Shown: in pieces, positions 15,169 to 64,000 of the stretch
How positions within the stretch are numbered: position 1 is the stretch's first letter
Layout: every line of letters begins with the position of its first letter
IMG/VR virus record: IMGVR_UViG_3300042382_000594
Strand: one strand, 5' to 3'
Length of the DNA: 64,000 nucleotides
Source of the DNA: a virus
Taxonomy: Duplodnaviria; Heunggongvirae; Uroviricota; Caudoviricetes
Translations under genes and position numbers: made by a program
Notes under the pieces: model-generated
Database searches by the model: none
What the model saw: the letters and a program-made list of their open reading frames with translations, nothing else
What the model was told of the DNA's origin: nothing

Positions 15169-15680
15169 TCAACAACTCCATGCAAAAATATTTGGTGTAC
15201 GCACTCAACTACGCCATAATCTTTACTATTAACGTGATAATCAAATTTGGCATTACGACCTAAACGACCCAAAACTCTAGCACTGTTACTTTTTGCAAAT
15301 CCAGTTAATATTCCATAAGGGTAATCATTTGCTTCGCAATATTTAATTACCTTTAATATATTTTCTGATTCGCCAGAAGAACTTATTAAAATAATAAATG
15401 TATCATAAGTTCTGTATGCTTTTACAAATTCTAAATACGCATTTTCCATACCGTAATCGTTAATAAAACACGTTAACATAGATGGATCGGAAAACGTTAA
15501 AGAATGTTTATGACACTTTTTAACATAATCTTGCGAGATATGAGAAGCAACTGAATTGCTTCCTCCATTACCGATAATAATAAATTTATTGTTTTGCTTA
15601 AAAACGCTTTTAAATTTATTGTATTCTTCGGAATCTTCCATTTTAGATAAAATATCTATACAATCTTTTATTAAACTCAT
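15165..15680 (-). CDS. gmhA: SIS-domain sedoheptulose-7-phosphate isomerase (GmhA-like)
   Basis: IIGNGGSNSVASH matches the GmhA GNGGSAADAQH signature. 171 aa. Confidence 0.7.
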   Translation of the reverse strand: MSLIKDCIDILSKMEDSEEYNKFKSVFKQNNKFIIIGNGGSNSVASHISQDYVKKCHKHSLTFSDPSMLTCFINDYGMENAYLEFVKAYRTYDTFIILISSSGESENILKVIKYCEANDYPYGILTGFAKSNSARVLGRLGRNAKFDYHVNSKDYGVVECVHQIFLHGVVE

Positions 15681-16624: not shown

Positions 16625-17625
16625 GTTAAATAAACATCCTTAAATTCTTGCATTACGATTTCTGGAGTATAATTAGCAGTATAACCATCCCAATCTATTT
16701 TAGCTATCTCATTTCTATCAAAGAAACATAATATATTATATAGATCTTGGGCAGTATCATAATAAATTGCTTTATTTTGCATTAAGTAAATATGACCATA
16801 ATCATAAAAATGCGGTATTTCTTTTGGTAACCAAGAAATAACAGGTTTATTTCTAATAGTAAATTCAGCTACAGATAAACTAAATATTTCCCCATCAGCT
16901 CTTGCATGCATCATAGCATCACAAGTATTAACAAACTTCGCTTTTACTTGCTCGTCCATCGTCCATGGAAGATGAATAACTCGTTCGTGATCAATAAACT
17001 TATCTGTATTTAAAAAGACGAACCAGAGGTCTTTACGATCCTCTAACGCTTTTTTAATTGCAGGATAAACAAATTGTAGGTTAAAAGTTTCTCTACCACC
17101 ATGACGCCCAAGAACTAATGCATCTTTAGGGATACCCAATTCTTCTCTAAATGTATCATGCATATCTGAAGCTTCTTTTTCTAGAATATGATGAACATAA
17201 GGATGAGTTGCTCCAAATTTTTCTGAAATATATTTACATACCCCAGAATAAACGTCAGCATGAGGATCGTGCATTCTAAACACACAATGAGCCAACGATT
17301 TAGCATTAGTAGGCATTATACCATCATTTTCTCCAGCTTTAATTGCATAGAACGCATCAATCTTTTGCTTATCGCAAATTTTTTCTATAGCAGTTCTAAC
17401 ATTATTATTTTTAGCTCCATCTCTATATTCTTCTTCATATAAGATTGTTGAAAAATCTTTAAATCGATTTAAAGATGGAGTTGGTTTTAATCCAGAGGAA
17501 ATAATAATAGATTCATTACCCAAAATTTCTCTATTATATTTTGCATATTTGTAGAGACAAATTTCAGTACCTCTTTCACCTAATTGATTACTGTGGAACG
17601 CGATTCGCATTAGCTCTTTCCTCAT
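16621..17625 (-). CDS. GT-B fold glycosyltransferase (GT4-like)
   Basis: C-terminal ADGEIFSLSVAEFTIRNKPVIS resembles the GT4 E-x7-E/PVI motif. Confidence 0.45.
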   Translation of the reverse strand: MRKELMRIAFHSNQLGERGTEICLYKYAKYNREILGNESIIISSGLKPTPSLNRFKDFSTILYEEEYRDGAKNNNVRTAIEKICDKQKIDAFYAIKAGENDGIMPTNAKSLAHCVFRMHDPHADVYSGVCKYISEKFGATHPYVHHILEKEASDMHDTFREELGIPKDALVLGRHGGRETFNLQFVYPAIKKALEDRKDLWFVFLNTDKFIDHERVIHLPWTMDEQVKAKFVNTCDAMMHARADGEIFSLSVAEFTIRNKPVISWLPKEIPHFYDYGHIYLMQNKAIYYDTAQDLYNILCFFDRNEIAKIDWDGYTANYTPEIVMQEFKDVYLT

Positions 17626-18337
17626 CCATTTTTCTAAATTTTTCTACTGAATATTGACGTTCTTCTGTTTCAAGAGCTTGTAATTCAGGTTTTAAATAAT
17701 TAGCATCTTCGTGATATCTAAAACAATGAACAACTTTTTCAATCATAATTGGAGGACCATAATGCCAGTACGATCTAACAAAGTATTCTCCATCAACTAC
17801 GAATCGTAAATTTTCATCCATATCAATAGCAAATTCTCTACGAACTGCATAAGTAGAAGGATTTCCCGTTGAATTATCTCCGTTAACATATGCATTATCA
17901 AATCTAGGTAGCCTAGCATTAAAAAATTCAGTTCTATCTTCATTACAATTAACAAAGCCAGCAATCAACCACTTTTTATCTGGATTTGCTTGAAACGCAT
18001 CCCAAGTTTCCTGCAACCCAGTTTGTTCAACAAAAAAATCATCCATAAATAAAATTTTACATATTTCTCCAGTAGCTTTTTTCATACCAAAATTAACATT
18101 GGCTGCAGTAGAACCTCGCATATAATCGTTTTTATAGTATTTAATATCTAATACATGAGAAAAAGTGTCACAAATAGCTTTTAAATTATCACCAACACTA
18201 TGGTCAGCAACAACAATATCGAAATCTTTAAAATGTTGATACGATAATGAAGCAAAAAATTCTACTAAAAATCTTTCACTATAACCTTCTCTAATAGAAG
18301 AAGTATGAATGGGGGCAATTATTGATATTTTTGGCAT
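17588..18337 (-). CDS. GT-A fold glycosyltransferase (GT2-like)
   Basis: N-terminal ISIIAPIH...VVADHS pattern of GT2 enzymes. Confidence 0.5.
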   Translation of the reverse strand: MPKISIIAPIHTSSIREGYSERFLVEFFASLSYQHFKDFDIVVADHSVGDNLKAICDTFSHVLDIKYYKNDYMRGSTAANVNFGMKKATGEICKILFMDDFFVEQTGLQETWDAFQANPDKKWLIAGFVNCNEDRTEFFNARLPRFDNAYVNGDNSTGNPSTYAVRREFAIDMDENLRFVVDGEYFVRSYWHYGPPIMIEKVVHCFRYHEDANYLKPELQALETEERQYSVEKFRKMDEERANANRVPQ

Positions 18338-18340
18338 TAT

Positions 18341-19123
18341 TTAATCCTTTTCGTACATTGATCTAGGAAAGTATGTTTCACCTAAACTTGAAATTGGCGG
18401 CATAAAGGGAGCATTTTTTATTGTATAGAAATCGCTATTACAAACTGAACCTATCCACATTTCAGCTTTTAGCCTAATAGAATTCCAAGTTCGTAAATCA
18501 GTAGAATTAATTAAATTTATCCACCAATCATTTTCCATTATATCAGGGAGTTTATTTATATGCGAAGATTTAGACCACCAAATTGTTCCTGAATAATGAG
18601 GAGTTGGCCATTCGCACAAATTAACTCCAGCGCAAGAATGTGTTTCTAATGCTTTAATACAAAGTTTCCAGTTTTCAACGCAACCCCATTCTAAAAACTT
18701 TCTCCAATTATAATAATTAACATATCTTCTAAAATCGCCTGCTTGTTTCATTCTACTTGTAGCAGTAACTCCTTTAGAATGAAGATAAAGAAAATAAGCA
18801 TCTTCGCGTTTAGCATGAGCCTGTAATTCTTTCATTGTTATAGTTTCGTCATGAGGATTATGATTATCCAAATAATTAGAAGATAATTGTTGATCATTTA
18901 ATTTAGTTTCACAACAATTTAATACTTGAATTTTATTAAACTGAGTACATAATCCAACAAATAAATTTATTTGTTCCGGTGAACCGATACAATTAACATA
19001 CATTTTTTCCAATTCATCATATAAACCGGAATTTATAGTTAAATAAACTTGGTCTATAAATAAACTAGACCAAGTTCCAGTATCATCAGTAAGGTAAATG
19101 TGATAATACAAATATTTTTTCAT
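18341..19123 (-). CDS. hypothetical protein within glycan cluster
   Basis: ORF track. 260 aa, Trp/Cys-rich. Location only. Confidence 0.25.
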   Translation of the reverse strand: MKKYLYYHIYLTDDTGTWSSLFIDQVYLTINSGLYDELEKMYVNCIGSPEQINLFVGLCTQFNKIQVLNCCETKLNDQQLSSNYLDNHNPHDETITMKELQAHAKREDAYFLYLHSKGVTATSRMKQAGDFRRYVNYYNWRKFLEWGCVENWKLCIKALETHSCAGVNLCEWPTPHYSGTIWWSKSSHINKLPDIMENDWWINLINSTDLRTWNSIRLKAEMWIGSVCNSDFYTIKNAPFMPPISSLGETYFPRSMYEKD

Positions 19124-20154
19124 TAGGCTAACTCAATCCATTCTTGATTATCTAATGACCAATGAACGACTTCTGAAATACGTTCTTGAAGAGATACTTT
19201 TGGTTCCCAACCTAGAGATTTCATATATTCACCAGATAAAGCATAACGTAAATCGTGTCCAGGTCTAGAAGTATGGAAATCAATCATTTCATAATTTAAT
19301 TCTTTTCCCGCTGCAGCAGCAATCATTTTGGCTAAAGATAAATTATCAATTTCTTCTTTACCAACAACATTAAATTTAGGGCATTTAGCATTACCATAAT
19401 CAGGTTCGTAGATAGAAGGATTATCTAAATTTAATAAGAATAACATAGCATCAGCAACATCACTAGCATGAATATAATGGCGGCTACCAGCTTGAGTTTT
19501 ATCAGCATTAGAATGAATAAAAACTGTATCTCCATCTCTAGCTCTACGGATACATAATGGAATAAACTTTTCTGGATGTTGACGCTCACCAAACACATTC
19601 ATTGTGTGAGTAACAAAGATCGGAGTTCCATAAGTATTTTCATATGCTACACACAATTCTTCGCCTGCAGCTTTAGAAGCTGAATATGGATTTGTTGAAT
19701 TATATCTATCGCGTTCTTTATAATCAACGCCCTCTGGGGCGACACCAAAAATTTCATCAGTAGAAAAATAGATAAATCTTTCTAAACTTTTATGTTTTCT
19801 AGCGAACTCTAGGATATTTGTAGTACCAACAACATTATCCATTACAAATTCCATAGGAAATTCAATAGATCGATCTACATGACTTCCTGCAGCTAAATGT
19901 AGGATATAATTTATTTCACCAATAAAATTCTGTGTTAATGTTGAAATTTCAGCTTTTAAATCATGAAATACGAATTTAATTCTACTTTTAAATTCCGGAT
20001 TTCTAGCAATAACGTCAGCTAATCTATTTAAATTACCAGATAAATCTAATCTGTCTAACGTAACAATTTCCCAGTCAGTATTTGTTAGGAAATGATATAG
20101 AACATGATGTGCAATAAAACCTGCTCCGCCTGTTATTAATACTCTTTTTGCCAT
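19123..20154 (-). CDS. NDP-sugar 4,6-dehydratase (RmlB/GDP-heptose dehydratase-like SDR)
   Basis: VLITGGAGFIAHH, YSASKAAGE, HPEKFIPL and RPGHDLRYAL align with RmlB motifs (YSASKA, EKLIPL, RPGHDRRYAID). Confidence 0.8.
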   Translation of the reverse strand: MAKRVLITGGAGFIAHHVLYHFLTNTDWEIVTLDRLDLSGNLNRLADVIARNPEFKSRIKFVFHDLKAEISTLTQNFIGEINYILHLAAGSHVDRSIEFPMEFVMDNVVGTTNILEFARKHKSLERFIYFSTDEIFGVAPEGVDYKERDRYNSTNPYSASKAAGEELCVAYENTYGTPIFVTHTMNVFGERQHPEKFIPLCIRRARDGDTVFIHSNADKTQAGSRHYIHASDVADAMLFLLNLDNPSIYEPDYGNAKCPKFNVVGKEEIDNLSLAKMIAAAAGKELNYEMIDFHTSRPGHDLRYALSGEYMKSLGWEPKVSLQERISEVVHWSLDNQEWIELA

Positions 20155-20169
20155 TTTAAAACCCCCAAA

Positions 20170-20862
20170 TTACGAATAATTACAAATTTTTCCAGAATAA
20201 ACTTCAATAGAATTAAACATACCATTAGTAGAAAACGTTCCATCTACTATTTCATCGCATCTTAATTTAAATAAGTCAGCGTTTTGTTTATATCTTCCCT
20301 GAAATAAATGATATACAGAATTAGCAAATACTGTTCCAATACCGTAATATCCAAAATTACCCAATCTCCAAACACCTTCAACCGGCTCACGCTCAAAATT
20401 TGTTGGATACAATGCTTTATATGGAACCATAAAATCTTCAGCAACGTATGAAACTTCTTCAGCAACATCGCTTCTTGAATTTTCTAAGAAAGATGGTTTA
20501 CCCATTTTAACCCAAGTATCTCTATATATAAAGAAAAAGCACGGAGCAGCAAAAATATGCGCTCTTGGAGCAATATGATTTGATGCTTGAGCTGTTCCAA
20601 TAAATGATTTTGTTGCAGTTGCATATGCAATAGCATATTCTACAATACCTGCATTTAAGGGAACGCAATCATTATCAAAAAAACCAACAACGTCAGCTGT
20701 GCTATTTTCTAAAACCTCATTCATCCATTGACCATGAGGAATTGTTGTTAAATCATATTGAACCTGTAACCCTAAATGTTCAGTTACTTTTTTATGCGAT
20801 TCAATTAAATATTCACCATTTTGCCAATACATACATCTTAATTCTACAGTTACTTCTTCCAT
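20170..20862 (-). CDS. hypothetical protein within glycan cluster
   Basis: ORF track. 230 aa. Confidence 0.25.
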   Translation of the reverse strand: MEEVTVELRCMYWQNGEYLIESHKKVTEHLGLQVQYDLTTIPHGQWMNEVLENSTADVVGFFDNDCVPLNAGIVEYAIAYATATKSFIGTAQASNHIAPRAHIFAAPCFFFIYRDTWVKMGKPSFLENSRSDVAEEVSYVAEDFMVPYKALYPTNFEREPVEGVWRLGNFGYYGIGTVFANSVYHLFQGRYKQNADLFKLRCDEIVDGTFSTNGMFNSIEVYSGKICNYS

Positions 20863-21563
20863 GGATATTTCCCATTATATGTTTCATTCATTATTTTATT
20901 ACCCTGCTCAAAAAATTCTTTTGTCACAGAACCCTCGTTACCGCCCAATCGATAATTAATTGTATATTCACCAGAACATTCATAATTATTAAAATTATTA
21001 TGCAATACATTAAAAATTACTCTATCTTCACCCCAACCGGAATGCCAGAATGAAGCAATTTTAATAGCAATTTCTTTTGGAATACAATAACAATTAGTAT
21101 CAACCATATTTGTATTAGTCCAAGCAGACCATTTTCCTAAACTTTCGCAATTATCTTGCAACAAATACTCTCCAGCAGGAGAATATATATTACGCAAACT
21201 ATATGCCCATTGAGATCCAGTTGATTCAATAGTTGAAATCATAGATTCAATATGAGTAGGTTCATACCAATTATCTTGATCTAAGAAAAACAAATAATCT
21301 TTGTTTACTAGATGAGAAAAAGAGGCATAAATTCGTTGGCCATAAAAACCACCAGCACCAACGTTTTCTTCTAGATAAACTAGTTGAATAGGAATACCAA
21401 AACCTCTACCAAAAAACATCTTTCTTACTTTAGAAGCAAATTCTTTTCCATCAACTACAATAAGAGCAGTAACGTCCTTGTATGTTTGTTTAGAAATACT
21501 CTCTACTGCTTGTATAAGAGTGTCAGCTCCTGTTGTAGGAATTATTACTATCGCGCTTTTCAT
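20850..21563 (-). CDS. GT-A fold glycosyltransferase (GT2)
   Basis: AIVIIPTTG...ALIVVDGKE pattern typical of GT2 enzymes. Confidence 0.6.
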   Translation of the reverse strand: MKSAIVIIPTTGADTLIQAVESISKQTYKDVTALIVVDGKEFASKVRKMFFGRGFGIPIQLVYLEENVGAGGFYGQRIYASFSHLVNKDYLFFLDQDNWYEPTHIESMISTIESTGSQWAYSLRNIYSPAGEYLLQDNCESLGKWSAWTNTNMVDTNCYCIPKEIAIKIASFWHSGWGEDRVIFNVLHNNFNNYECSGEYTINYRLGGNEGSVTKEFFEQGNKIMNETYNGKYPWKK

Positions 21564-32780: not shown

Positions 32781-32854
32781 TGGAGCGGGATAAGGGAATC
32801 GAACCCTCACTAGGAGATTGGAAATCTGCTGTTCTACCATTAAACTAATCCCGC
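32781..32854 (-). tRNA. tRNA-Gly (anticodon UCC)
   Basis: Manual fold. Acceptor gcgggat/atcccgc, D-arm gttt/gaac, anticodon loop tttccaa, T-arm gaggg-ttcgatt-ccctt, CCA encoded. One C-C mismatch in the anticodon stem. Confidence 0.6.
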
Positions 32855-32860
32855 AATATT

Positions 32861-32937
32861 TGGTGCCCCTCCTAGGACTTGAACCTAGAACCAACCGATT
32901 ATGAGTCGGACGCTCTAACCATTTGAGCTAAAGGGGC
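32861..32937 (-). tRNA. tRNA-Met or Ile2 (anticodon CAU)
   Basis: Manual fold. Anticodon loop ctcataa, T-arm ctagg-ttcaagt-cctag, CCA encoded. Confidence 0.6.
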
Positions 32938-32982
32938 AAATTACATTACTATTATATAACGTAAACGTGTATTAGTCAAGAA

Positions 32983-33165
32983 TTATTTTTTCTGAACTTT
33001 TTTAAAGAAATTATCTAATTTTTTATCGCACTGTTTATTTGAATTTGTTAAAGATTCGACCTTTGCAGTTAAAGCAGCATGATCATCTTGTAACTTAGCT
33101 AAATCGCCTGAACTAGCGCAACCTGTTACAAATAAACATAAACTAACTAAAAATAAAGTTTTCAT
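32983..33165 (-). CDS. Lpp-like coiled-coil lipoprotein
   Basis: Signal peptide with lipobox LFVTGC followed by a helical SSGDLAKLQDDHAALTAKVESLTN region, like Braun lipoprotein. Embedded in the tRNA array. Confidence 0.45.
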   Translation of the reverse strand: MKTLFLVSLCLFVTGCASSGDLAKLQDDHAALTAKVESLTNSNKQCDKKLDNFFKKVQKK

Positions 33166-33187
33166 AACTTTCTCTTATTAAATTAAT

Positions 33188-33264
33188 TGGCGGGCAGGGA
33201 AAGACTCGAACTCTCATCTTTGTGTTTTGGAGGCACATGTTTTATCCAATTAAACTACCTACCC
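33188..33264 (-). tRNA. tRNA-Trp (anticodon CCA)
   Basis: Manual fold. Acceptor gggtagg/cctgccc, anticodon loop ctccaaa, T-arm gagag-ttcgagt-ctttc, CCA encoded. C-A mismatch at the base of the anticodon stem. Confidence 0.5.
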
Positions 33265-33269
33265 AGTAT

Positions 33270-33344
33270 TGGCGTCGCTACGGGGAATCGAACCCCGCTT
33301 ACAAGAATGAAAATCTTGTGTCCTAACCGATAGACGATAGCGAC
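33270..33344 (-). tRNA. tRNA-Glu (anticodon UUC)
   Basis: Manual fold. Acceptor gtcgcta/tagcgac, anticodon stem caaga/tcttg with loop ttttcat, T-arm cgggg-ttcgatt-ccccg, CCA encoded. Confidence 0.55.
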
Positions 33345-33368
33345 AATTATTTTTTAAACCCATTAGGG

Positions 33369-33441
33369 GTGACTAGTGGGACTTGAACCCACAAAATCTC
33401 GAATCACAATCGAGGACGTCTACCAATTCCGTCATAGTCAC
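33369..33441 (-). tRNA. tRNA-His (anticodon GUG)
   Basis: Manual fold. Anticodon stem ctcga/tcgag with loop ttgtgat, T-arm gtggg-ttcaagt-cccac, discriminator C, CCA not encoded. Confidence 0.55.
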
Positions 33442-33458
33442 ACCTAATGGGTCTTATT

Positions 33459-33535
33459 TGGCTCCCAGAGTAAGAATCGAACTTACCTGATAAACTGATT
33501 AACAGTCAGCTGGCACACCTTGCGCCCATCTGGGA
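33459..33535 (-). tRNA. tRNA-Asn (anticodon GUU)
   Basis: Manual fold. Acceptor tcccaga/tctggga, anticodon stem gctga/tcagt with loop ctgttaa, T-arm gtaag-ttcgatt-cttac, CCA encoded. Variable region is unusually long (7 nt). Confidence 0.5.
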
Positions 33536-33543
33536 TTTATCTT

Positions 33544-34167
33544 TTAATTATTTACAATTACATCTAATATTTTTAACTCTAATTCTTGTAGAGTTCCATT
33601 ATTGTCAATTATATAGTCAATATGAGGATTTCCATACCAATCGTATTCAGATTTATGTATATTTTGCGATGCTGCATAAGCATCAAATACAGATTTATCT
33701 AACGAATCAAGATAACCGTACCAGTTAGGTCGTGTTTCTTTTCTATCAATTTGAATAAATACAGCTCCAATAGATTTTAAGAAACTAATCTCGTTTTTAA
33801 ATCTAACATCAGTAATAACTACATTATCATACTGTTGAATTTTTCGCTCAAGAGAATCAACCCAAATTCCATCAAGTAAATTTTCTCTACAAACTTCTGT
33901 ACCAAAATACTGTAGTATATATCTAGGTGTTATAGGTTTATTAAATTTAACCGACCAAAAAGTATCAACAGTTTCACGAAAAACTCTAGATTCTTCGGTG
34001 TCACCTTCTAATAAAGCTCTATCCCAACCAAAAATAGAAGATACTGCATCTTTTAATGAGCCAGCAAAAGATAGAGCAGTAAAATTATTTTCTACTAAAA
34101 TATCGCCAGCAGTTCCTTTTCCAGAACCAATAAAACCAAGTAACCCAATAATCATAATATAACCCAA
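33544..34167 (-). CDS. 1: deoxynucleoside monophosphate kinase (T4 gp1-like)
   Basis: P-loop GFIGSGKGT. VVITDVRFKNEISFLKSIGAVFIQIDR and the C-terminal IDNNGTLQELELKI resemble T4 gp1 (IVPDTRQDHE...GATVIHVVRP, ITNDGSLEELFSKI). Confidence 0.6.
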   Translation of the reverse strand: MGYIMIIGLLGFIGSGKGTAGDILVENNFTALSFAGSLKDAVSSIFGWDRALLEGDTEESRVFRETVDTFWSVKFNKPITPRYILQYFGTEVCRENLLDGIWVDSLERKIQQYDNVVITDVRFKNEISFLKSIGAVFIQIDRKETRPNWYGYLDSLDKSVFDAYAASQNIHKSEYDWYGNPHIDYIIDNNGTLQELELKILDVIVNN

Positions 34168-34171
34168 AACG

Positions 34172-34993
34172 TCAAGAAAGTAAAGACAAATACTTATTCA
34201 TAATATTTGACAAATCTTGTTTTAATAATATTCTTCCATGATATTTAAAAGTATCTCGTAATTGCTCATAACTCTCAGCGTTTTCGGATAAATGTTCGTT
34301 AAACGTAACTAATAATTTTTCTTTAGTTAATCCAGTTGGACTATTATTATCAGTATGTTGACCGCCAGCCATAGAAAACCTATCGCTAAGAGGTACTCGC
34401 GTTTGAATCTGCAACTTTCTAGCTATAAATTCATCGGTCATAGGAGCAAAACCATAATTAAAAATAATAAATCTTGCTGTATTAATTAATCTCGGGTAAT
34501 GCCTGCCTTGGCTATATCTAACAGAATTAGAATGCATTAAACGAGAACCTCTGTGTTCTATAGTATTAGGAACATCTAAACCAACTTTAAGAACATCCCA
34601 TAAAGGAACGTCATACGACAACGTATTTGATCCCCTAAACTCTAATTCATCAACAAAATATAAACATGGAATATATAATTCTTCTTCTTTTGTCGAATTT
34701 AAACTAGCAAAATCGCCAATTAAAAATTCAGTGGTATTTAAACAAACTTTCCAATCAGTTATAGTTGCCTCAATATCCATCACTTCACGATCTACGTCAC
34801 TAGCACTAAAGTCTCGGTTTTTGCTGTTAACTATTTCCCAAGTAGGGCAAATGTGTTTAATAATTTCAACACTTTTATCTGTACTAGCATAATTAATCAA
34901 AATGCCATGATCAAAATATTTTTTATGGTGATTTAACCACCACGGAAGTAAATATTCTTCATTATAAAAATGCGAAATAATAGTTTTTTTCAT
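34172..34993 (-). CDS. putative GT-A glycosyltransferase (DUF23/GT92-like)
   Basis: N-terminal ISHFYNEEYLLPWWLNHH resembles the NE..L.EW..HH motif of GT92/DUF23 proteins. Confidence 0.3.
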   Translation of the reverse strand: MKKTIISHFYNEEYLLPWWLNHHKKYFDHGILINYASTDKSVEIIKHICPTWEIVNSKNRDFSASDVDREVMDIEATITDWKVCLNTTEFLIGDFASLNSTKEEELYIPCLYFVDELEFRGSNTLSYDVPLWDVLKVGLDVPNTIEHRGSRLMHSNSVRYSQGRHYPRLINTARFIIFNYGFAPMTDEFIARKLQIQTRVPLSDRFSMAGGQHTDNNSPTGLTKEKLLVTFNEHLSENAESYEQLRDTFKYHGRILLKQDLSNIMNKYLSLLS

Positions 34994-35008
34994 TTATCAC
35001 CTAAAAAT

Positions 35009-35075
35009 TGGACGCGAAAGGGTGGAATAGAACCGCAAGTTATGAGCCTAGCTATCTACCACTGATATACTTCGC
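35009..35075 (-). tRNA. degenerate tRNA-like element with CAU anticodon loop (possible pseudo-tRNA)
   Basis: Acceptor 6/7 bp, perfect D-arm tatc/gata, anticodon loop ctcataa. The anticodon stem is weak and no canonical T-arm could be folded. Confidence 0.25.
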
Positions 35076-35083
35076 ATAATATT

Positions 35084-35160
35084 TGGTCTCCCATGACAGA
35101 TTCGAACTGCCGACCTATCCGCCCCAAACGGATCGCTCTACCAGACTGAGCTAATGGGAG
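35084..35160 (-). tRNA. tRNA-Pro (anticodon UGG)
   Basis: Manual fold. Acceptor ctcccat/atgggag, anticodon stem atccg/cggat with loop tttgggg, T-arm ggcag-ttcgaat-ctgtc, CCA encoded. Confidence 0.65.
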
Positions 35161-35168
35161 TAATAATT

Positions 35169-35244
35169 TGGAGCCAAAGACAGGAATCGAACCCGCAACA
35201 TCTTCATTACAAGTGAAGCGCTCTACCTATTGAGCTACATTGGC
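35169..35244 (-). tRNA. tRNA-Thr (anticodon UGU)
   Basis: Manual fold. D-arm gctc/gagc, anticodon stem cttca/tgaag with loop cttgtaa, T-arm gcggg-ttcgatt-cctgt, CCA encoded. One U-U mismatch in the acceptor stem. Confidence 0.55.
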
Positions 35245-44643: not shown

Positions 44644-46026
44644 ATGGTAAAAGTTGTAGTTTTAAAACCGGAAGAGGTAACTCCAAGACCCGATTTGGTT
44701 GGTAAATGGCTTAATGAAAGTCATTATAGAATATTAGTTGAAGAAGATTTAGATGTATATCTTCCTCCAGATTGCGCAGATTTTACTGCCGAAGAAAACT
44801 GTGATAACAATATGGAATGTAATTCTTGTCATAAAGGGTTATCTGAAAAGAATATTGTATTTAAGTTTCGTAAAAATTTCTTTAATAAAGAAGAGGCTGA
44901 TGCAGCTTACGCGGGTTTACGTGATGCAGCTGTTGAAACTCAAAATCGCGGTATGGCTGGTGGACCAAGAACTGCTACATGCGCAGGAAGAGAATGGGTT
45001 ACTGATGAACAATTTGATTTATTAGAATTCTTTGCACATAAAAATTCGACTTCAGTATTCGGCGGATATACGCCAAAGGCAGATGTTGATTTAATACGAG
45101 CCAAGTATAAAAATCTTAAATCTGATGATAGTCGTGGTGTCGTCTGGTTGACTGAGCAAATTAGAGCTGAGAAATTTGTATTTAATGACTTTATCGATAA
45201 ATTATGCGCATTAACTATTGATGAAGCAAAAGCTGAAGCTCAACGAGTATTAGATAAATTGATTAGTAAAACGACTTATGCTAATGTCGTAAATTCTGGT
45301 ATTGCTGGTTGGTATGATAGATATCCTAGAATTCCTTTTGGTAGACCAACTACCTATACAAGAGATAATCTAGAAAAGTTTTCTAAGTCTTATCCATTCT
45401 TACAATCTTTAGCTAAAGGTTTTAAGGATATGTTGCCATGGCGTTATGGTAATCAAAAACGAGCTGCAGAATCAATTGATCAAAGATTTGTTGTACCAGA
45501 TACTCCATTTACGACAATTACAGTAAATAAAAACTTTCGAACCGCTGGCCATTACGATCCAGCTAATATGGAAGATGGATTCGCTAATCTTTGTGTTATG
45601 TCAAATAATGATCAATATGAAGGATGTTATTTAGTATTTCCGGAAATTGGTTATGCAGTTGATGTCAGACCTACTGATTTATTATTAGTAAATAATCAAG
45701 CTGGATTACATGGTAATACTGAATTAAAACTAAAAGATCCAGATGCAGAAAGAATTAGTATGATTGCGTTTTTCCATGAAGGTATGTTAACGCTTGGTAC
45801 TTATGATTACGAGAATACTCGCAGAGAATTTATTGATAGTCGTAGATTAAATCCCGATCATCCAGACCAAAGATACCGTTGGAATGGCATCACTCCTGGA
45901 TTATGGGAATCTGATGAGTGGATTGATTATTTGTTAGCTCAACCGCAAGGCAAAGGTTGGTTAGAATCCTATCACAAAGATTTGTATGACCGTAGATTCG
46001 GTAACAGTTTAGATAACTTTTTTTAA
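44644..46026 (+). CDS. 2-oxoglutarate/Fe(II)-dependent oxygenase with long N-terminal extension
   Basis: HYD (HxD), then LHGNT about 60 aa later, then ERIS (RxS): the classic 2OG-Fe(II)-oxygenase facial triad plus 2OG-binding Arg. Strong AGGAGA RBS. Confidence 0.55.
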   Translation: MVKVVVLKPEEVTPRPDLVGKWLNESHYRILVEEDLDVYLPPDCADFTAEENCDNNMECNSCHKGLSEKNIVFKFRKNFFNKEEADAAYAGLRDAAVETQNRGMAGGPRTATCAGREWVTDEQFDLLEFFAHKNSTSVFGGYTPKADVDLIRAKYKNLKSDDSRGVVWLTEQIRAEKFVFNDFIDKLCALTIDEAKAEAQRVLDKLISKTTYANVVNSGIAGWYDRYPRIPFGRPTTYTRDNLEKFSKSYPFLQSLAKGFKDMLPWRYGNQKRAAESIDQRFVVPDTPFTTITVNKNFRTAGHYDPANMEDGFANLCVMSNNDQYEGCYLVFPEIGYAVDVRPTDLLLVNNQAGLHGNTELKLKDPDAERISMIAFFHEGMLTLGTYDYENTRREFIDSRRLNPDHPDQRYRWNGITPGLWESDEWIDYLLAQPQGKGWLESYHKDLYDRRFGNSLDNFF

Positions 46027-46034
46027 GGTAGATT

Positions 46035-46844
46035 ATGAAATTGAATATTGCAATTCCTTCGTATAAACGATCTGATACGCTTAGAGATAAAACTTTAAGT
46101 GTATTGGAGAAATATAATGTAGATCCAAGTACAGTAACAATCTTTGTTGCTAATGATGCCGAAAAGACTGCATACGAAACATCATTAAAAGATAACATTT
46201 ATAACAAAAATATTGTTGTGGGTGTTGTTGGTATGGGACCAATTAGAAACTTTATTAGAAATTATTATGATGAGGGGGAATTTGTTGTAAATTTTGATGA
46301 TGATTTATCGAGTATTATGCGCAAAGCTCCTGCTGATGAAAAGAAAATGGAGCCAATTGAAGATATCCATAAAGAAGTATTTGAGCCAATGTATAATATT
46401 ATGCAGGAGAACGAAAATAAGCTCTGTGGTGTCTATGCAGCGTCGAATGCGTTTTTTATGAGTTATACCCCTAAGACTGGTTTATATTACTGCATTGGGT
46501 CGCTGTGGGGCTGCATTAACGATAAACATCAAGATCGTATGGTTCAATTATGCGATAAAGAAGATTTTGAGCGAACTCTTCAACATTATGTTCTTGATGG
46601 TTCAGTTTCGCGATTAGACAATATTACTGTTATATCCAAATATTATACTGAAGATGGAGGAATGCAAGTTGAACGAACTCTTGAACGTATTGATAAAAGT
46701 GCTGACGATTTAGTTCGTAGATTTCCAGATTTATGTACAAAATACGTCCGTGAAACTACAGGTCACGCTGAATTACGCTTACGGGATACTAGTGGAGGTA
46801 AATATCAAAAATCCACTTCTTTTGGTTTAGATAGTTTTTTCTAA
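46035..46844 (+). CDS. GT-A fold glycosyltransferase
   Basis: N-terminal IAIPSYKRSD and DxD-like NFDDDL. Start lies 9 nt after the oxygenase stop. Confidence 0.5.
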   Translation: MKLNIAIPSYKRSDTLRDKTLSVLEKYNVDPSTVTIFVANDAEKTAYETSLKDNIYNKNIVVGVVGMGPIRNFIRNYYDEGEFVVNFDDDLSSIMRKAPADEKKMEPIEDIHKEVFEPMYNIMQENENKLCGVYAASNAFFMSYTPKTGLYYCIGSLWGCINDKHQDRMVQLCDKEDFERTLQHYVLDGSVSRLDNITVISKYYTEDGGMQVERTLERIDKSADDLVRRFPDLCTKYVRETTGHAELRLRDTSGGKYQKSTSFGLDSFF

Positions 46845-59769: not shown

Positions 59770-59777
59770 TATTTATA
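59770..59777 (-). promoter_or_regulatory. T4-type late promoter TATAAATA (minus strand) for gene 13
   Basis: Plus strand reads tatttata, about 32 nt upstream of the start. Confidence 0.45.
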
Positions 59778-59791
59778 ATAAAAGGATTATT

Positions 59792-60193
59792 TTAAAATAA
59801 TGCTTTTTTTACTTGTGTAGCCCAATAATATGCGTGCTTACTATCAACCCTAACGTTAAAATTATTTGGTTTTTCAAATATTTTATTTGTATTCTCGTAT
59901 TCGCATCTATCAATCGTATCCATAAATATCATTAAATCTGCTCTAAAATATTTTCTAATTTCGTTAGTTGGAGCAACGAAATCACAAATAACATAATCAG
60001 CTTTAGAATCCTCGGCTAATCTTTTTATTCTATCACATTGACGAATTCTTCCTTGATCGCTAAAATCCCAATCATTATACTGTTTTCTAATCTCATCTGC
60101 ATTAAACCATTCAGAATTTGGTAAAATTTTAGCCAATTCCCTTGCTAATGTTGTTTTACCGGAATTAGGTAATCCCATTATTAAAATTTTCAT
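59792..60193 (-). CDS. adenylylsulfate (APS) kinase-like P-loop kinase, short form
   Basis: [17 protein letters not shown] matches [43 protein letters not shown] matches [44 protein letters not shown] matches the CysC ISP motif. Confidence 0.5.
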   Translation of the reverse strand: [133 protein letters not shown]

Positions 60194-60201
60194 GTTTTTC
60201 T

Positions 60202-60765
60202 CTATTGGTGAGTATGATATCTTGGTGGCTTATGGATAATTGCATTGATTCTAACTTGACTGCATACATTTCCATATGTATTAGATATATCAATAATTTC
60301 TTGCATATTATGATTAGACATATCAGTATCACAATCATAAGCTACTTGTGATACTTCTATATCAACATTGCACTGATACCCTAATGTAGTTTCCTGACCC
60401 CCAGATTCAATTGTTTGTTTATTTCTATGTTGATTAAACATATCAATTGTAACAGGCGTAATTTTTCTGCAGTGTGTTGGGTCGTGGTGAAAGTTCTCGT
60501 GATTATGATGCGGAACTACAATCTTTAATTGACCTTGATCGCTTAAAATTCTATAAAATTCTTTAATAATATTTAAAAAGGTATCTGTTTGCTGCCCAAG
60601 ATGTTCTAATACATGATTAAGAATAATTTCGTCAACAGAATTATCATCGAACGGTAATTTAGTTTCTAAATTTGCTATTACATCAGGGTTACAATTTTGA
60701 TCATAATCGACGTTGATATATCCATCTAATTTATTATATCCGCACCCAAGGTTTAATTTAATCAT
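60202..60765 (-). CDS. class I SAM-dependent methyltransferase
   Basis: LNLGCGYNKLDGYINVD (motif I) and LPFDDNSVDEIILNHVLEHL (motifs II/III). Confidence 0.7.
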   Translation of the reverse strand: MIKLNLGCGYNKLDGYINVDYDQNCNPDVIANLETKLPFDDNSVDEIILNHVLEHLGQQTDTFLNIIKEFYRILSDQGQLKIVVPHHNHENFHHDPTHCRKITPVTIDMFNQHRNKQTIESGGQETTLGYQCNVDIEVSQVAYDCDTDMSNHNMQEIIDISNTYGNVCSQVRINAIIHKPPRYHTHQ

Positions 60766-62114
60766 AATAAATTGTTATTGTTAGGTAGGGAAATGGTGGA
60801 ATTTCCATATACTTGTCTGATTTCTAATTTCGATTTGAGTTGATTCATTGGTTCTGCCCATGATTTCCATTTAATTTGTCTTAATAGAGTCGTATTCTTA
60901 TACCAGATAGTTGATGTATCTGTTGTTGAACTCCATAGATAGTATTCAAATATTGGAGTAAAAATATAAGTTTCTTTTCCTAATGCTCCAGCTGCATGAG
61001 GCACAGAAGTACAGCTGGAAACGACATAATCTAAATTATATATTAATCCTAGAGTATCATCAAATGTTTTTAATTTAGCCGATAAATCAATTATTGGTCT
61101 AATGTTGGAATGAATTGGTTCTTGATGTAATGAAACTAATACTGCTTGTTCCGAAATATTAGATACTAATTCGTCTAAATCTAGAGTTCGATGTAAATTA
61201 TGTTCGTATCCTATTTCTCCATAATATTTAATACCAACGCAACCTCTATATTGTTTAAACTTTTCGATAGATTCAGGAGTAGCTGTTAAGTAAGGTCCTT
61301 TATCAATTTCATGTTCATCTAGATTTAATAGGTACGGTAATCTCATAGAAACACACCAAACTGTATATTTGGTTGAGTCTAATTCAGTCACGTGTTCGAT
61401 TGCTTGATATCCCATTCTAATAATAATATCTCGAATATCTTTTCTATGAGTCTTCCATACTGGGATCATACCTAACGCTTTAATATTTTCAAGAAATCTT
61501 ATGTTAATAATTTCATCGCCATATCCGCCATAAGATTCAATTAATAATACTGCATCTTGAATAGGAGTTTTATCCCAATAATCGAAATTGTATTTATTGG
61601 TTTCTTTAGGTTTAGAGTTATCCCAAATACAAGACAACCCTTTATTAAATTCATGTCTTGATAGATAATATGCGGTAAGATTATGTTTGACTGCATTACG
61701 AATTGCTGAATTATTAGACTTTTGTTCAAGTTCTAATAAAAGCTTATTAGCTTCATCCCTATTATTTAACAATGATAAAGATATAGACTTTTCAATTAAC
61801 ACATCTTCATTATTGGGGGTTTTATTAAGCACCCAGTTTGACAATTCCAATGATTTATGTGGCTCATTTAATAAATTATAAACTCGAGTTAAATTAACTT
61901 TAATAAAATATTCTTCTTGCTCGGTAGCAATCTCTAATTCTCTAATTGCTAAGTCTATAACTTCTTGATAAAAATGAAGTTTATCGTAAATTACAATAAT
62001 TTCATCCATTTGCTCTATCGTAAATGCATGTAATTCAAAAGTTTTAAGTAATTCGCGCGCCAAATTACTTTTATTATTGTCATGCAAAAACATAGCTATT
62101 TCTAACAACGTCAT
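60762..62114 (-). CDS. TPR-repeat N-terminal domain fused to GT9-family (heptosyltransferase-like) glycosyltransferase
   Basis: C-terminal LIYNLDYVVSSCTSVPHAAGALGKETYIFTPIFEYYLW matches the heptosyltransferase signature LI...DL.I..DSGPMHLAAALG.P.V.LFGPT. The N-terminal 170 aa are helical repeats. Confidence 0.55.
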   Translation of the reverse strand: MTLLEIAMFLHDNNKSNLARELLKTFELHAFTIEQMDEIIVIYDKLHFYQEVIDLAIRELEIATEQEEYFIKVNLTRVYNLLNEPHKSLELSNWVLNKTPNNEDVLIEKSISLSLLNNRDEANKLLLELEQKSNNSAIRNAVKHNLTAYYLSRHEFNKGLSCIWDNSKPKETNKYNFDYWDKTPIQDAVLLIESYGGYGDEIINIRFLENIKALGMIPVWKTHRKDIRDIIIRMGYQAIEHVTELDSTKYTVWCVSMRLPYLLNLDEHEIDKGPYLTATPESIEKFKQYRGCVGIKYYGEIGYEHNLHRTLDLDELVSNISEQAVLVSLHQEPIHSNIRPIIDLSAKLKTFDDTLGLIYNLDYVVSSCTSVPHAAGALGKETYIFTPIFEYYLWSSTTDTSTIWYKNTTLLRQIKWKSWAEPMNQLKSKLEIRQVYGNSTISLPNNNNLL

Positions 62115-62136: not shown

Positions 62137-62904
62137 TTATTTCCAGAATTCCATACCTTTTACATGCTGTTGAATATCTGGCGGAATAATACATGGTCTA
62201 TTAATAAATGATACTTTCTTTCTGGTAGTATGTAATCCAGGCATATTAACATCGGCATCAAATTCATCAAATGAAAATTCCACGTCATCAAAATTATGTT
62301 CGAAATACGGTTTTTCTATAAATTTGTAAATTCGTTGCATCTCAACTTTAGGATTTTTAGCTAAATTTTCATAATCTACTATTAACATCATTGATCGTTC
62401 TGTTGAAAAATACCCTTGTTTTAATGCATGATACGCAAACCCAAGAGTTCTATTATCACTTAATAATGTCTGAGTTCTTGTATAAACATTAACGTTTTCT
62501 TCAGGGGAAAACATACTAGAAGCTGTATATGGATTTTTTCTAATCAACGTTTCGAATGAATCTAAAATCCATCTAATCTCTCTAACACAAACAATTACCT
62601 TAGCTTGAGGAAATAAATCCTTCAATAATGGTAACATTAATGGATATCCACGATTTGTATCAAAATGTACTTTATCGCCTTCAAAATATGTATCAAAGAT
62701 AGATTTAATAATTGCTTTACGTTTTAATTCTGTGCATTGAAATCTATAACCACCTTGATCAGATGATTGTTCAATAATTGCTCTGGTAAATCTAGCAACT
62801 GGACCTGAGATAGATGCATTAAAATCTGGATTTTGATTTAATATTGTTGATAATAATGTAGTTCCTGAACGAGGTAATCCCGTAATGAAGTTGTATTCTT
62901 TCAT
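62137..62904 (-). CDS. sulfotransferase-family protein
   Basis: N-terminal ITGLPRSGTTLLSTIL matches the PAPS 5'-phosphosulfate-binding motif (PKSGTTWL). 255 aa. Confidence 0.55.
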   Translation of the reverse strand: MKEYNFITGLPRSGTTLLSTILNQNPDFNASISGPVARFTRAIIEQSSDQGGYRFQCTELKRKAIIKSIFDTYFEGDKVHFDTNRGYPLMLPLLKDLFPQAKVIVCVREIRWILDSFETLIRKNPYTASSMFSPEENVNVYTRTQTLLSDNRTLGFAYHALKQGYFSTERSMMLIVDYENLAKNPKVEMQRIYKFIEKPYFEHNFDDVEFSFDEFDADVNMPGLHTTRKKVSFINRPCIIPPDIQQHVKGMEFWK

Positions 62905-62942: not shown

Positions 62943-64000
62943 TTAAAACTGGGACTTTATTTCGGCTACACTGAAGCTATTACTGTATGCCACATTCTTC
63001 CAGGTCAATAAACTACCAACTTGTACTGGACTTGATCTTGAAGTAGTATCGCCTAATCCTAATTGTCCATAACCATTATATCCCCAAGCCCATGAAGACC
63101 CATCGGTTTTTATAGCTCTAGTAGAAAAGGATGTAGGCGCGTTTGATATTTTATTCCAGTTTAATAGCGATCCAACTTGTACTGGGCTTGATCTATTGAT
63201 TCTATCGATTAATCCTAACTCACCTTGGGTGTTGGTTCCCCAAGCCCATAAAGACCCATCGGTTTTTGTAGCTACTGTATGAAAGTATCCGCCTGATAGA
63301 TTATTCCAAGTCAATAAATTTCCAACTTGAACTGGGCTTGATCTAAAGGTAGTATCGCCTAATCCTAATTGCCCATATTCATTACCTCCCCAAGCCCACA
63401 AAGACCCATCGGTTTTTGTAGCTAACACGTAGTAGCCACCGCCTGCTACCTTATCCCAAGTTAATAAAGATCCAACTTGAACTGGACTTGATCTAGCAAT
63501 ATTATCGCCTAATCCTAATTGCCCTTGCCAGTTATATCCCCAAGCCCATAAAGACCCATCGGTTTTTGTAGCTACTGTATGAAAGTATCCGCATGCCACA
63601 TTCTTCCAGGTCAATAAACTACCAACTTGTACTGGACTTGATCTTGAAGTAGTATCGCCTAATCCTAACTCTCCAGAAGAGTTATATCCGCAAGCCCATA
63701 AAGATCCATCGGTTTTTGTAGCTAAAGTATATTTTCCTCCACATGATACGTTCTTCCATGTCAATAATGATCCAACTTGTACTGGACTTGATCTATGAGT
63801 ACGATCGCCTAATCCTAACTGACCAAATTCATTATATCCCCAAGCCCATAAAGATCCATCGGTTTTTGTAGCTAAAGTGTGTTGACTCCCGCATGCTAAT
63901 TTATTCCAAGTTGTTAAACTTCCAATTTGTACGGGGCTAGATCTAGAAATAGCATTATCGCCTAATCCTAATTGGCCTAAGCCGTTAGCTCCACAAGAGA
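62943..64000 (-). CDS. RCC1-repeat beta-propeller protein (putative fibre/host-recognition protein), N-terminus beyond window
   Basis: About 52-aa repeats with GELGLGDTTSRSSPVQVGSLLTWKNVA..G.HT.A.KTDGSLWAWG.N (RCC1 blade). The reading frame stays open past the TTG used by the ORF track and continues to the window end. Confidence 0.7.
   Translation of the reverse strand, partial: SCGANGLGQLGLGDNAISRSSPVQIGSLTTWNKLACGSQHTLATKTDGSLWAWGYNEFGQLGLGDRTHRSSPVQVGSLLTWKNVSCGGKYTLATKTDGSLWACGYNSSGELGLGDTTSRSSPVQVGSLLTWKNVACGYFHTVATKTDGSLWAWGYNWQGQLGLGDNIARSSPVQVGSLLTWDKVAGGGYYVLATKTDGSLWAWGGNEYGQLGLGDTTFRSSPVQVGNLLTWNNLSGGYFHTVATKTDGSLWAWGTNTQGELGLIDRINRSSPVQVGSLLNWNKISNAPTSFSTRAIKTDGSSWAWGYNGYGQLGLGDTTSRSSPVQVGSLLTWKNVAYSNSFSVAEIKSQF
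62990..64000. repeat. tandem DNA repeats (about 156-nt unit) encoding the RCC1 blades
   Basis: Near-identical 50-60-nt blocks recur at 63041, 63341 and 63641 (cctaattg.ccat. .cattat. .ccccaagcccat...), and again at 63241 and 63541 (ccaagcccataaagacccatcggtttttgtagctactgtatgaaagtatccgc). Confidence 0.7.

Follow-up and report, generated by a model that had tools for sequence, protein, structure and literature searches.

The RCC1-C gene and its locus

This study concerns a phage gene for a propeller protein of the RCC1 type, here named RCC1-C, which lies at the end of a 64,000-nucleotide (nt) stretch of DNA (hereafter the window) from a virus of the class Caudoviricetes (IMG/VR record IMGVR_UViG_3300042382_000594). 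The window holds the 3' 92% of the gene on its minus strand (reading frame 62943-63998, stop codon at 62943-62945). The preliminary description of this DNA, made from its letters before any database search, had already stated that the frame continues past the window end, and it does so by 32 codons; the complete gene, encoding 383 amino acids (aa), is located at positions 8811-9962 of contig L002. RCC1-C comprises a 32-aa N-terminal extension followed by seven blades (Table 1), whose coding DNA forms a tandem array at about 62987-63980 (Tandem Repeats Finder: period 150, 6.5 copies, 75% matches, score 880) with start-to-start spacings of 156, 150, 150, 150, 150, and 150. The repeat unit is 50 aa or 150 nt; the length of about 52 aa or 156 nt originally given for it applies to blade 6 alone. 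Pfam profiles recognized the protein above their gathering cut-offs, both as seven stretches of PF00415 (E 7.8e-76, 250.9 bits, cut-off 21.7) and as the RCC1-like domain PF25390 (E 3.8e-77, 260.5 bits, cut-off 150).

The phage is a T4-like myovirus encoding gp23, UvsW, UvsX, a gp43-type polymerase, and a clamp loader; the GC content is 31%, TerL shares about 50% identity with that of cyanomyoviruses, and the host is probably cyanobacterial. Four contigs reached via the sulfotransferase gene next to RCC1-C, namely L001 (ENA, 126 kb), L002 (JGI, 214 kb), L005, and L006, are 100% identical to the window tail. On L002, two further RCC1 paralogs, RCC1-A (385 aa) and RCC1-B (403 aa), are encoded just past the window end, and each of the three paralogs consists, in about 385 aa, of a 30-40-aa N-terminal extension and seven blades. 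The gene order starts with a large fiber protein, a 495-aa protein, an 80-aa protein, and an S74-chaperone tail fiber (1090 aa), continues with RCC1-A, a DUF4376 protein, RCC1-B, a 131-aa open reading frame (ORF), and RCC1-C, and proceeds through the sulfotransferase, a 450-aa protein combining tetratricopeptide repeats with a glycosyltransferase-like part (TPR-GT), a methyltransferase, and a protein resembling adenosine 5'-phosphosulfate (APS) kinase to gp13, gp14, gp15, gp16, gp17, gp18, gp19, and the portal gene. The first description of the region as a fiber locus was therefore apt, RCC1-C being encoded within a tail-fiber operon.

The whole block is on one strand, with gaps of at most 38 nt from the S74 fiber gene to the kinase gene. 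The motif TATAAATA, assigned as a T4 late-promoter-like element by consensus match only, precedes the S74 fiber gene by 41 nt and gp13, gp18, and gp19 by 39-54 nt, and none is present on that strand between the S74 fiber gene and gp13. It is reasonable to suppose from this layout that the fiber, RCC1, and enzyme genes form a single late transcript ending before gp13.

Three smaller elements accompany the propellers. The N-terminal extensions (30-45 aa) belong to a few recurrent types common to several lineages ('SN[FY]..G.DLD..[FY][VI]', 'MS.RY..G.I.PGFNPL', and 'G.WT...Q......G.WP') and may be docking peptides. The 131-aa ORF and the 219-aa DUF4376 protein are interleaved with the RCC1 paralogs; the latter is 33% identical to gp336 of Synechococcus phage S-SRM01. 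PHROG and NCBIfam profile searches gave no assignable function for either, and both may be assembly or attachment factors.

Exact repeats and gene conversion within the genome

The blades of RCC1-C had been described as near-identical DNA repeats with blocks identical over more than 50 nt. The array and such blocks are indeed present, but between whole blades, identity is only 61-84% (mean 74%) for DNA and 52-78% (mean 66%) for protein. The two longest exact tracts, of 76 and 56 nt (Table 1), abut and together form a 132-nt mosaic running from blade 3 into blade 4, with two different partners elsewhere in the gene.

The simplest account of this resemblance is that purifying selection on a 50-aa motif, together with codon bias in an AT-rich genome, keeps the blades alike without any special repeat dynamics; blade DNA identity (74%) does track protein identity (66%), and several related genes sit at near-random codon identity (0.39-0.47). 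We therefore back-translated RCC1-C 300 times with the codon usage of the genome and 300 times with its own. The longest self-repeat in this null averaged 21-23 nt and reached at most 36-40 nt, and the observed 76-nt tract was attained in 0 of 300 simulations. Where two blades have the same amino acid, they use the same codon in 72% of cases (458 of 636), compared with the 46% (292) expected from the codon usage of the window. Nucleotide identity thus exceeds what amino-acid conservation would produce, as the preliminary description had proposed. Codon bias with purifying selection alone was rejected on these grounds, and is made still less probable by significant permutation tests and by the loss of orthology between blades whose flanking genes are 85-91% identical (see below); we regard it as very improbable.

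A Sawyer/GENECONV-type permutation of polymorphic sites, applied to blades within and between paralogs, identified tracts shared by blades C3 and C7 and by C3 and C5 (global p<0.001), as well as inter-paralog tracts A7-B2 and A3-C2 and the within-paralog tract A2-A4 (p 0.003-0.004). Gene conversion within RCC1-C and between the paralogs is supported by these sequence data, and the comparative evidence described in the next section is stronger than that of the window alone. Mean blade identity in a set of 33 related phage RCC1 genes extends from 0.53 to 0.87, with RCC1-C (0.74) ranking sixth; the blades with a mean of 0.53 have near-random codon identity. Judged by these values, the phage RCC1 family spans every stage from freshly homogenized to fully diverged blades.

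A diversity-generating retroelement was also considered and rejected, since 46% of blade-blade mismatches involve no A and the changes are therefore not adenine-specific. A non-exhaustive scan of the ORFs revealed no reverse transcriptase.

Divergence from a sister phage and concerted evolution

An IMG/VR contig reached through a 93%-identical sulfotransferase, L068, is syntenic with the window phage. Nucleotide identity between the two is 89% in the 131-aa ORF, 91% in the sulfotransferase gene, 88% in the methyltransferase gene, and 85% in the kinase gene, and falls to 72% in the blade region of RCC1-C and to 64% in that of RCC1-B (last three blades). Two divergent blade regions (64-72%) consequently flank the conserved 131-aa gene among non-repeat genes that are 85-91% identical, and the blade regions diverge roughly three-fold faster than their neighbors. 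Orthologous blade pairs are no more alike (72.7%) than non-orthologous ones (72.0%), that is, no positional orthology signal is left. This is the only orthologous pair available, and it is saturated at synonymous sites.

Within L068, the blades are 80-91% identical to each other and 82% identical across its two paralogs, and they carry the lineage-specific motifs WSWGRN.YGQ and TWNNVA.GY.HTVA. All 31 blades find their nearest neighbor within the genome that encodes them, often in another paralog, and with S-SRM01 included this holds for 48 of 48; in the three genomes, all paralogs have genome-specific blade motifs in common. Because every blade has its nearest relative in its own genome, we conclude that blades and paralogs evolve in concert. 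Together with the exact tracts and the permutation test, the comparison with L068 supports the gene conversion that had been suggested from the window alone.

Horizontal exchange offers a different explanation, in which blade regions are replaced as cassettes between phages by recombination within blade sequences and the conserved N-terminal extension, and the repeats serve as landing pads for modular swapping instead of converting one another inside a genome. At the borders of the blade regions, identity of the window phage with L068 falls sharply, as such an exchange would leave it, and the recurrence of N-terminal extension types across lineages fits it as well. A further example may be seen in two ENA contigs, L069 and L070, whose identity is 99.7% in the initial ~9 kb and 99.3% in another 3.5 kb and which look cyanophage-like (heme oxygenase, bilin reductase, three sulfotransferases). 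Between these stretches, L069 encodes a 7-blade gene, a TPR-GT, and a 2-blade ORF, and L070 a 6-blade gene, a DUF4376 protein, and a 4-blade ORF; the breakpoints of this cassette swap fall inside RCC1 blades. The difference between them reflects genuine recombination at the repeats or else a chimera of short-read assembly, and the latter possibility reduces its weight as an example of exchange. Exchange would also require both blade regions around the 89%-identical 131-aa gene to have been precisely replaced by the same blade type, and it does not account for significant conversion tracts inside one genome or for genome-specific blade motifs common to the paralogs of three genomes. We consider it an unlikely explanation of the divergence.

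Searches for closer relatives yielded few: megablast of 60-64 kb against isolate phages gave no match, relatives retrieved from IMG/VR with the RCC1 protein did not exceed 51% identity, and the scan of a single metagenome returned 79 loci, none of them above 56% identity, with no further population variants.

Blade number and length variation

The preliminary description had proposed that the repeats could expand and contract. Among the assemblies of the window phage that span the array, no variation in the repeat number of RCC1-C was found. Four independent ones (two from ENA and two from JGI) match the window there at 100% identity, and the entire 383-aa, 7-blade gene is present in two of these; a fifth contig is represented by a gene call only, likewise of 383 aa and in the corresponding place. 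The L068 counterpart, at 380 aa, likewise has seven blades, and expansion or contraction was accordingly not borne out. Among the 33 related RCC1 genes, 25 have seven detected blades, the exceptions being one 5-blade gene, one 6-blade gene (in L070), and proteins of much greater length that have 8-71 repeats; stand-alone relatives cluster at roughly 350-410 aa among the matches listed. The number of blades is stable because the propeller is a closed structure.

Repeats of this kind raise the question of whether the array itself is a product of short-read assembly, with repeats collapsed or chimeric. Two Logan contigs, L003 and L004, do break off inside the 76-nt tract, both starting at window position 63016 within its blade-7 copy; short-k assembly graphs evidently branch at the RCC1-C repeats. 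The odd blade counts of L069 and L070 (6, 4, and 2) would also fit such an origin. Against it stand the complete agreement of the four independent assemblies, which differ in sample and pipeline, over the stretch that they cover, on which basis an artifact was rejected for the window phage, and a product that is an intact 7-blade propeller with a confident model (pLDDT 96); the chance of an artifact is, in our estimation, negligible.

The real repeat-length polymorphism of the locus is in the S74 fiber gene, outside the window. This gene contains near-perfect tandem repeats (periods of 126, 72, and 42 nt; 98-100% matches) of the form SGNT.L.GNT, whose copy number varies between samples; the gene calls are 938, 1090, and 1098 aa long.

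Predicted fold and variable face

An AlphaFold2 model of the 351-aa window fragment, built with 39 homologs, reached a mean predicted local distance difference test (pLDDT) score of 96.3 and a predicted template modeling (pTM) score of 0.92, with 26 strands in seven groups. In Foldseek comparisons, the template modeling (TM) score was 0.88 to UVR8 and 0.90-0.91 to HERC2 RLD2/3 and RCC1, with root-mean-square deviations of 1.6-2.9 Å; the best sequence match among solved structures was UVR8 (E 6e-73). The seven-bladed RCC1 propeller read from the letters alone was thus confirmed by profile and model. All 50 listed PDB fold matches are RCC1-like or related propellers, none of them a receptor-binding protein, and they include BLIP-II (3qhy).

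Across 31 blades, 11 of the 50 columns are highly variable (5, 7, 8, 16-18, 33, 36, 38, 39, and 42), and these 22% of columns hold 60% of the amino-acid differences between orthologs. A HMMER alignment places them with D96/D107 of UVR8 and with W/R in its GWRHT motifs, residues that we take, from published structures, to form one face of the propeller, the interface for dimerization and partner binding. Change focused on one face would fit a ligand-binding surface under diversifying pressure.

Neighboring enzymes and their linkage to RCC1 genes

Of the four enzymes encoded downstream of RCC1-C (Table 1), the sulfotransferase and the TPR-GT look like protein-modifying types. The sulfotransferase scores 73 bits against Pfam Sulfotransfer_3 (cut-off 27) and has as its best solved relative, weakly and over residues 6-201, protein-tyrosine sulfotransferase 1 (TPST1; E 7e-5); its acceptor could be tyrosine or else a sugar or small molecule. 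The TPR-GT has no Pfam, NCBIfam, or PDB sequence match. Its homologs are TPR proteins named glycosyltransferase, one with PF01075 (GT9) and many fused to methyltransferases, and the invariant residues include G197, G199, D200, R206, and H373. Its AlphaFold2 model (pLDDT 92.9) begins with 11 helices and continues with two Rossmann-like halves, with SPINDLY, OGT, XcOGT, TibC, and heptosyltransferase II as top Foldseek matches (E 5e-7 to 4e-4, or 5e-7 to 1e-4 for SPINDLY, OGT, and TibC; TM 0.3-0.47); the protein looks like a TPR superhelix joined to a GT-B domain of the protein-glycosyltransferase type. The kinase matches the NCBIfam adenylyl-sulfate kinase model (E 6e-10) below the curated cut-off.

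Table 1. Features of the RCC1-C locus and of other regions discussed in the text. Coordinates refer to the window unless a contig is named.
Feature	Coordinates	Strand	Remarks
RCC1-C ('C383')	62943..64000	-	3' 92% of 383-aa propeller gene; translation, Pfam, model
Blade 1	63849..63998	-	aa 33-82 of full protein; register by translation
Blade 2	63699..63848	-	Register by translation
Blade 3	63549..63698	-	76-nt exact tract in common with blade 7
Blade 4	63399..63548	-	Register by translation
Blade 5	63249..63398	-	Register by translation
Blade 6	63093..63248	-	52 aa, most divergent blade; register by translation
Blade 7	62946..63092	-	C-terminal, 49 aa; register by translation
76-nt exact tract, blade 3 copy	63593..63668	-	Identical to blade 7 copy, mismatches at both flanks
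76-nt exact tract, blade 7 copy	62987..63062	-	Identical to 63593-63668
56-nt exact tract, first copy	63537..63592	-	Starts in last 12 nt of blade 3, runs into blade 4
56-nt exact tract, second copy	63237..63292	-	Blade 5/6 boundary; identical to 63537-63592
38-nt exact tract	63841-63878 = 63691-63728	-	Identical copies
Sulfotransferase	62137..62904	-	255 aa; PRSGTTL motif, binding 3'-phosphoadenosine 5'-phosphosulfate (PAPS); 38 nt downstream of RCC1-C
TPR-GT	60762..62114	-	450 aa; TPR + GT-B glycosyltransferase-like, by homologs and predicted fold
Methyltransferase	60202..60765	-	187 aa, S-adenosylmethionine-dependent; Pfam Methyltransf_11, PHROG methyltransferase; 4-nt overlap with TPR-GT stop
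Small P-loop kinase, APS-kinase-like	59792..60193	-	133 aa; Pfam APS_kinase E 2e-8
TATAAATA, T4 late-promoter-like	59770..59777	-	39 nt upstream of gp13
TATAAATA before S74 fiber gene	L002:2051		
S74 fiber gene	L002:2092-5364		Beyond window end
RCC1-A	L002:5367-6524		N-terminal extension 5367-5460
DUF4376 protein	L002:6534-7193		
RCC1-B	L002:7209-8420		N-terminal extension 7209-7320
131-aa ORF	L002:8426-8821		
RCC1-C, complete	L002:8811-9962		N-terminal extension 8811-8906
Sulfotransferase-TPR-GT fusion ORFs	L007:3760-5526; L012:11069-12853; L021:11075-12859; L080:4187-5971; L092:2649-4505; L095:5299-7158		
Swapped cassette, L069	L069:8001-10917		
Swapped cassette, L070	L070:8001-10463		
Nucleotide-heptose-pathway-like cluster	13538-21563	-	All scores below curated cut-offs
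Epimerase	13538-14443	-	Heptose-like cluster
Haloacid dehalogenase (HAD) phosphatase fused to RfaE-II-like nucleotidyltransferase	14440-15168	-	
GmhA-like isomerase	15165-15680	-	
HddA-like heptose-7-P kinase	15677-16624	-	
4,6-Dehydratase	19123-20154	-	
GT2 enzymes, two	17588-18337 and 20850-21563	-	
Dioxygenase and glycosyltransferase pair	44644-46844	+	Between UvsW and gp23 capsid gene
Cluster of eight tRNA genes	32781-35244	-	

Directly downstream of an RCC1 gene, six contigs carry an ORF of about 595 aa in which sulfotransferase and TPR-GT are fused (Table 1). Since fusions of sulfotransferase with TPR-GT and of TPR-GT with methyltransferase both occur, the three enzymes should belong to one pathway. 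TPR-GT and/or sulfotransferase genes are present in 11 of 61 RCC1-bearing IMG/VR loci; most of the 11 are among the closest relatives, and none comes after locus L030. When flanks of 4 kb were considered, 12 of 79 metagenome loci had a gene of the enzyme/fiber module beside RCC1 (nine with sulfotransferase, two with TPR-GT only, and one with the kinase only). Isolate-phage records (50,697) contain sulfotransferase homologs in 10 cases and TPR-GT homologs in 6, and the isolates with those enzyme homologs include the best RCC1 matches S-SRM01, BUCT-ZZ01, and AG-345-E08. On this evidence, the linkage of RCC1, sulfotransferase, and TPR-GT genes is real and old, and it recurs in diverged phages.

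Elsewhere in the window, a cluster resembling a nucleotide-heptose pathway (Table 1) includes GmhA-, HddA-, and RfaE-like genes; it might provide the GT9-like TPR-GT with its donor sugar.

Related propellers and comparable systems

RCC1-C belongs to a known, uncharacterized phage protein family that has already been annotated in phages (phrog_7220, E 1.2e-59; phrog_4219, E 3.8e-51). RCC1-like proteins of large phages are repeatedly named 'chromosome condensation', which is a misleading label: Ran and nucleosomes are, to our knowledge, absent from the host, and the RCC1 name should not be read as function. With UVR8, RCC1, and HERC2, the protein has in common an architecture of seven blades, each with four strands and about 50 aa (TM 0.88-0.91, 26-33% identity), but differs in being a stand-alone viral protein with a short N-terminal extension, and we found no evidence in RCC1-C for a Ran guanine-nucleotide-exchange, chromatin, or UV-B function.

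The closest parallel among cultured phages is the Synechococcus phage S-SRM01 (Kyanoviridae, NC_070963), in which gp335, gp337, and gp344, annotated 'regulator of chromosome condensation', are three stand-alone RCC1 propellers of about 345-405 aa in the same order after the distal fiber gene. The order there is fiber gp334, RCC1 gp335, DUF4376-like gp336, RCC1 gp337, TPR-GT gp338, and a 2-oxoglutarate (2OG) oxygenase, and further on RCC1 gp344, followed directly by sulfotransferase gp345, a glycosyltransferase, and an epimerase. The RCC1 proteins are 40-46% identical to RCC1-C, the TPR-GT 31%, and the sulfotransferase 27.5%, and the blades are homogenized to 77% both within genes and between paralogs. 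S-SRM01 differs in the additional 2OG-Fe oxygenase, glycosyltransferase, and epimerase, in having no adjacent methyltransferase/kinase pair, and in its blade motif, TPVTTFAGGTNWKQV; its proteins are known by annotation only.

Multiple tandem RCC1-like paralogs of about 40 kDa are also encoded by other large myoviruses, namely W70 (Vequintavirinae), GAP32, phAPEC6, 121Q, and PBEC04. Three tandem phrog_4219 proteins of about 40 kDa, W70_237-239, were detected by mass spectrometry in virions of coliphage W70 (PMC11370258), as was gp001 in those of GAP32 (PMC5259590), and phAPEC6 has eleven RCC1-like copies, whose function was stated to be unknown (PMC7247149). Proteins of this type differ from RCC1-C in showing <30% identity to it (tblastn) and no reported adjacency to tail-fiber, sulfotransferase, or TPR-GT genes; their proposed role in DNA condensation derives from the name only.

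In phages of the T2/S16 type, the gene for the adhesin gp38 directly follows that for the distal fiber, gp37, and receptor choice is decided by hypervariable loops that gp38 carries on a conserved scaffold. The RCC1 propellers, likewise small proteins of their own encoded behind a fiber gene, may work by analogy with gp38, which is a polyglycine sandwich with no sequence or fold relation to them.

Two further parallels concern the enzymes. SPINDLY, OGT, and TibC are protein glycosyltransferases, and the TPR-GT has its best solved matches among OGT/SPINDLY and the TibC/AAH heptosyltransferases, which act on the repeat-rich adhesins TibA/AIDA-I. In the phage as in those systems, a repeat protein encoded beside the enzyme is the candidate substrate, and the window has its own genes resembling a heptose-nucleotide pathway; the TM scores of the model to the solved enzymes are only 0.3-0.47. 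The second parallel is with predicted bacterial sulfation operons (Iyer et al., 2010; PMC2938197), which likewise place a sulfotransferase, a PAPS-supply gene, and a methyltransferase beside a non-enzymatic fiber-like protein as the proposed substrate. These operons, known by prediction only, differ from the phage block in being bacterial and dioxygenase-centered and in having a tail-collar/collagen-like partner instead of a propeller.

Possible function of the propellers

We propose that RCC1-C and its paralogs are propellers diversified by gene conversion that act as late-expressed, virion-associated binding modules, and we assign this reading as a whole a probability of roughly 0.6. The 21 blades of the three paralogs behave as one pool of ~150-nt homologous units, trading tracts of ~40-130 nt within and between the three genes, so that they become alike inside each genome and diverge fast from those of other genomes, with the closed-propeller fold holding their number at seven. 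The propellers would be accessory adhesins or receptor-binding heads, docked near the fiber via the N-terminal extension, and their binding face would be diversified by conversion and selection; the propellers, or the fiber, may be modified post-translationally by the co-encoded enzymes. A role of RCC1-C in host recognition, as suggested in the preliminary description, is reasonable on circumstantial evidence of gene context and sequence variation. That RCC1-C is the substrate of the neighboring enzymes, also suggested there, is plausible on similarly circumstantial evidence from gene order; it is possible that the fiber or a non-protein acceptor takes that place instead.

Several points weigh against this proposal. 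The PHROG matches to 'tail protein' are weak and partial (phrog_20500, E 2e-11); neither PHROG nor the PDB fold matches revealed similarity of RCC1-C to a characterized receptor-binding fold; and no experiment places RCC1-C, or a relative of >40% identity, in a virion or on a receptor. The variable columns were mapped to one face through the UVR8 alignment and its published dimer interface, not through model coordinates. As to conversion, the site-permutation test takes no account of uneven constraint along the blade, homogenization is moderate here (mean 74%), so that most conversion may be old, and with a single sister genome, conversion and repeated cassette replacement are not fully separable. 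Our literature search found no RCC1-type receptor-binding protein, and no link of RCC1 with sulfotransferases or of sulfotransferases with tail fibers.

The propellers might instead work inside the infected cell, either as recruiters or scaffolds for the sulfotransferase and TPR-GT or as binders or inhibitors of host proteins. Domains of the RCC1-like type serve generally as platforms for protein interaction, and an RCC1-like protein found among the fold matches, BLIP-II, inhibits beta-lactamase. RCC1 genes are linked more tightly to the enzyme genes than to any structural gene, with adjacency in several diverged lineages, and the statement that the function of phage RCC1 proteins is unknown (PMC7247149) leaves room for such a role. 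The position of RCC1-C inside a block that is bounded by late-promoter-like motifs and starts with a tail-fiber gene points the other way, as does the mass-spectrometric detection of phrog_4219 relatives in virions; three fast-diverging paralogs with change on one face would also better fit an externally selected surface. An intracellular role thus appears rather doubtful, and we retain a virion-associated binding module as the preferred interpretation of RCC1-C.

In a more tentative extension, which we regard as improbable at present, the block would be a system for modifying virion proteins: the TPR/GT9-like transferase would glycosylate the propellers or the fiber, possibly with heptose nucleotides from the phage's own GmhA/HddA/RfaE-like genes (13.5-16.6 kb), and methylation and TPST-like sulfation with PAPS provided by the kinase would follow. 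If true, the block would produce sulfated glyco-adhesins, sulfation of a phage virion would be seen for the first time, and this would explain what sulfotransferases do in phage genomes, a role called unclear in a 2023 paper (PMC10580990).

The locus presents a triad of fast-evolving propellers in a tail-fiber operon together with a concrete mechanism for their diversification, in which 21 blades exchange sequence while each propeller keeps seven. The most interesting lead is the conserved coupling to a sulfotransferase/TPR-glycosyltransferase module, and the syntenic module in the cultured phage S-SRM01 makes both the adhesin role and the targets of the sulfotransferase directly testable.

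Other features of the window

Two genes on the opposite strand (Table 1) encode a Tet/JBP 2OG-Fe dioxygenase (E 1e-23) and, after it, a TET-associated glycosyltransferase, TAGT (E 8e-12); by these profile matches, the pair looks like a DNA cytosine hypermodification module. The window also contains a cluster of eight tRNA genes, specific for Gly, Met, Trp, Glu, His, Asn, Pro, and Thr.

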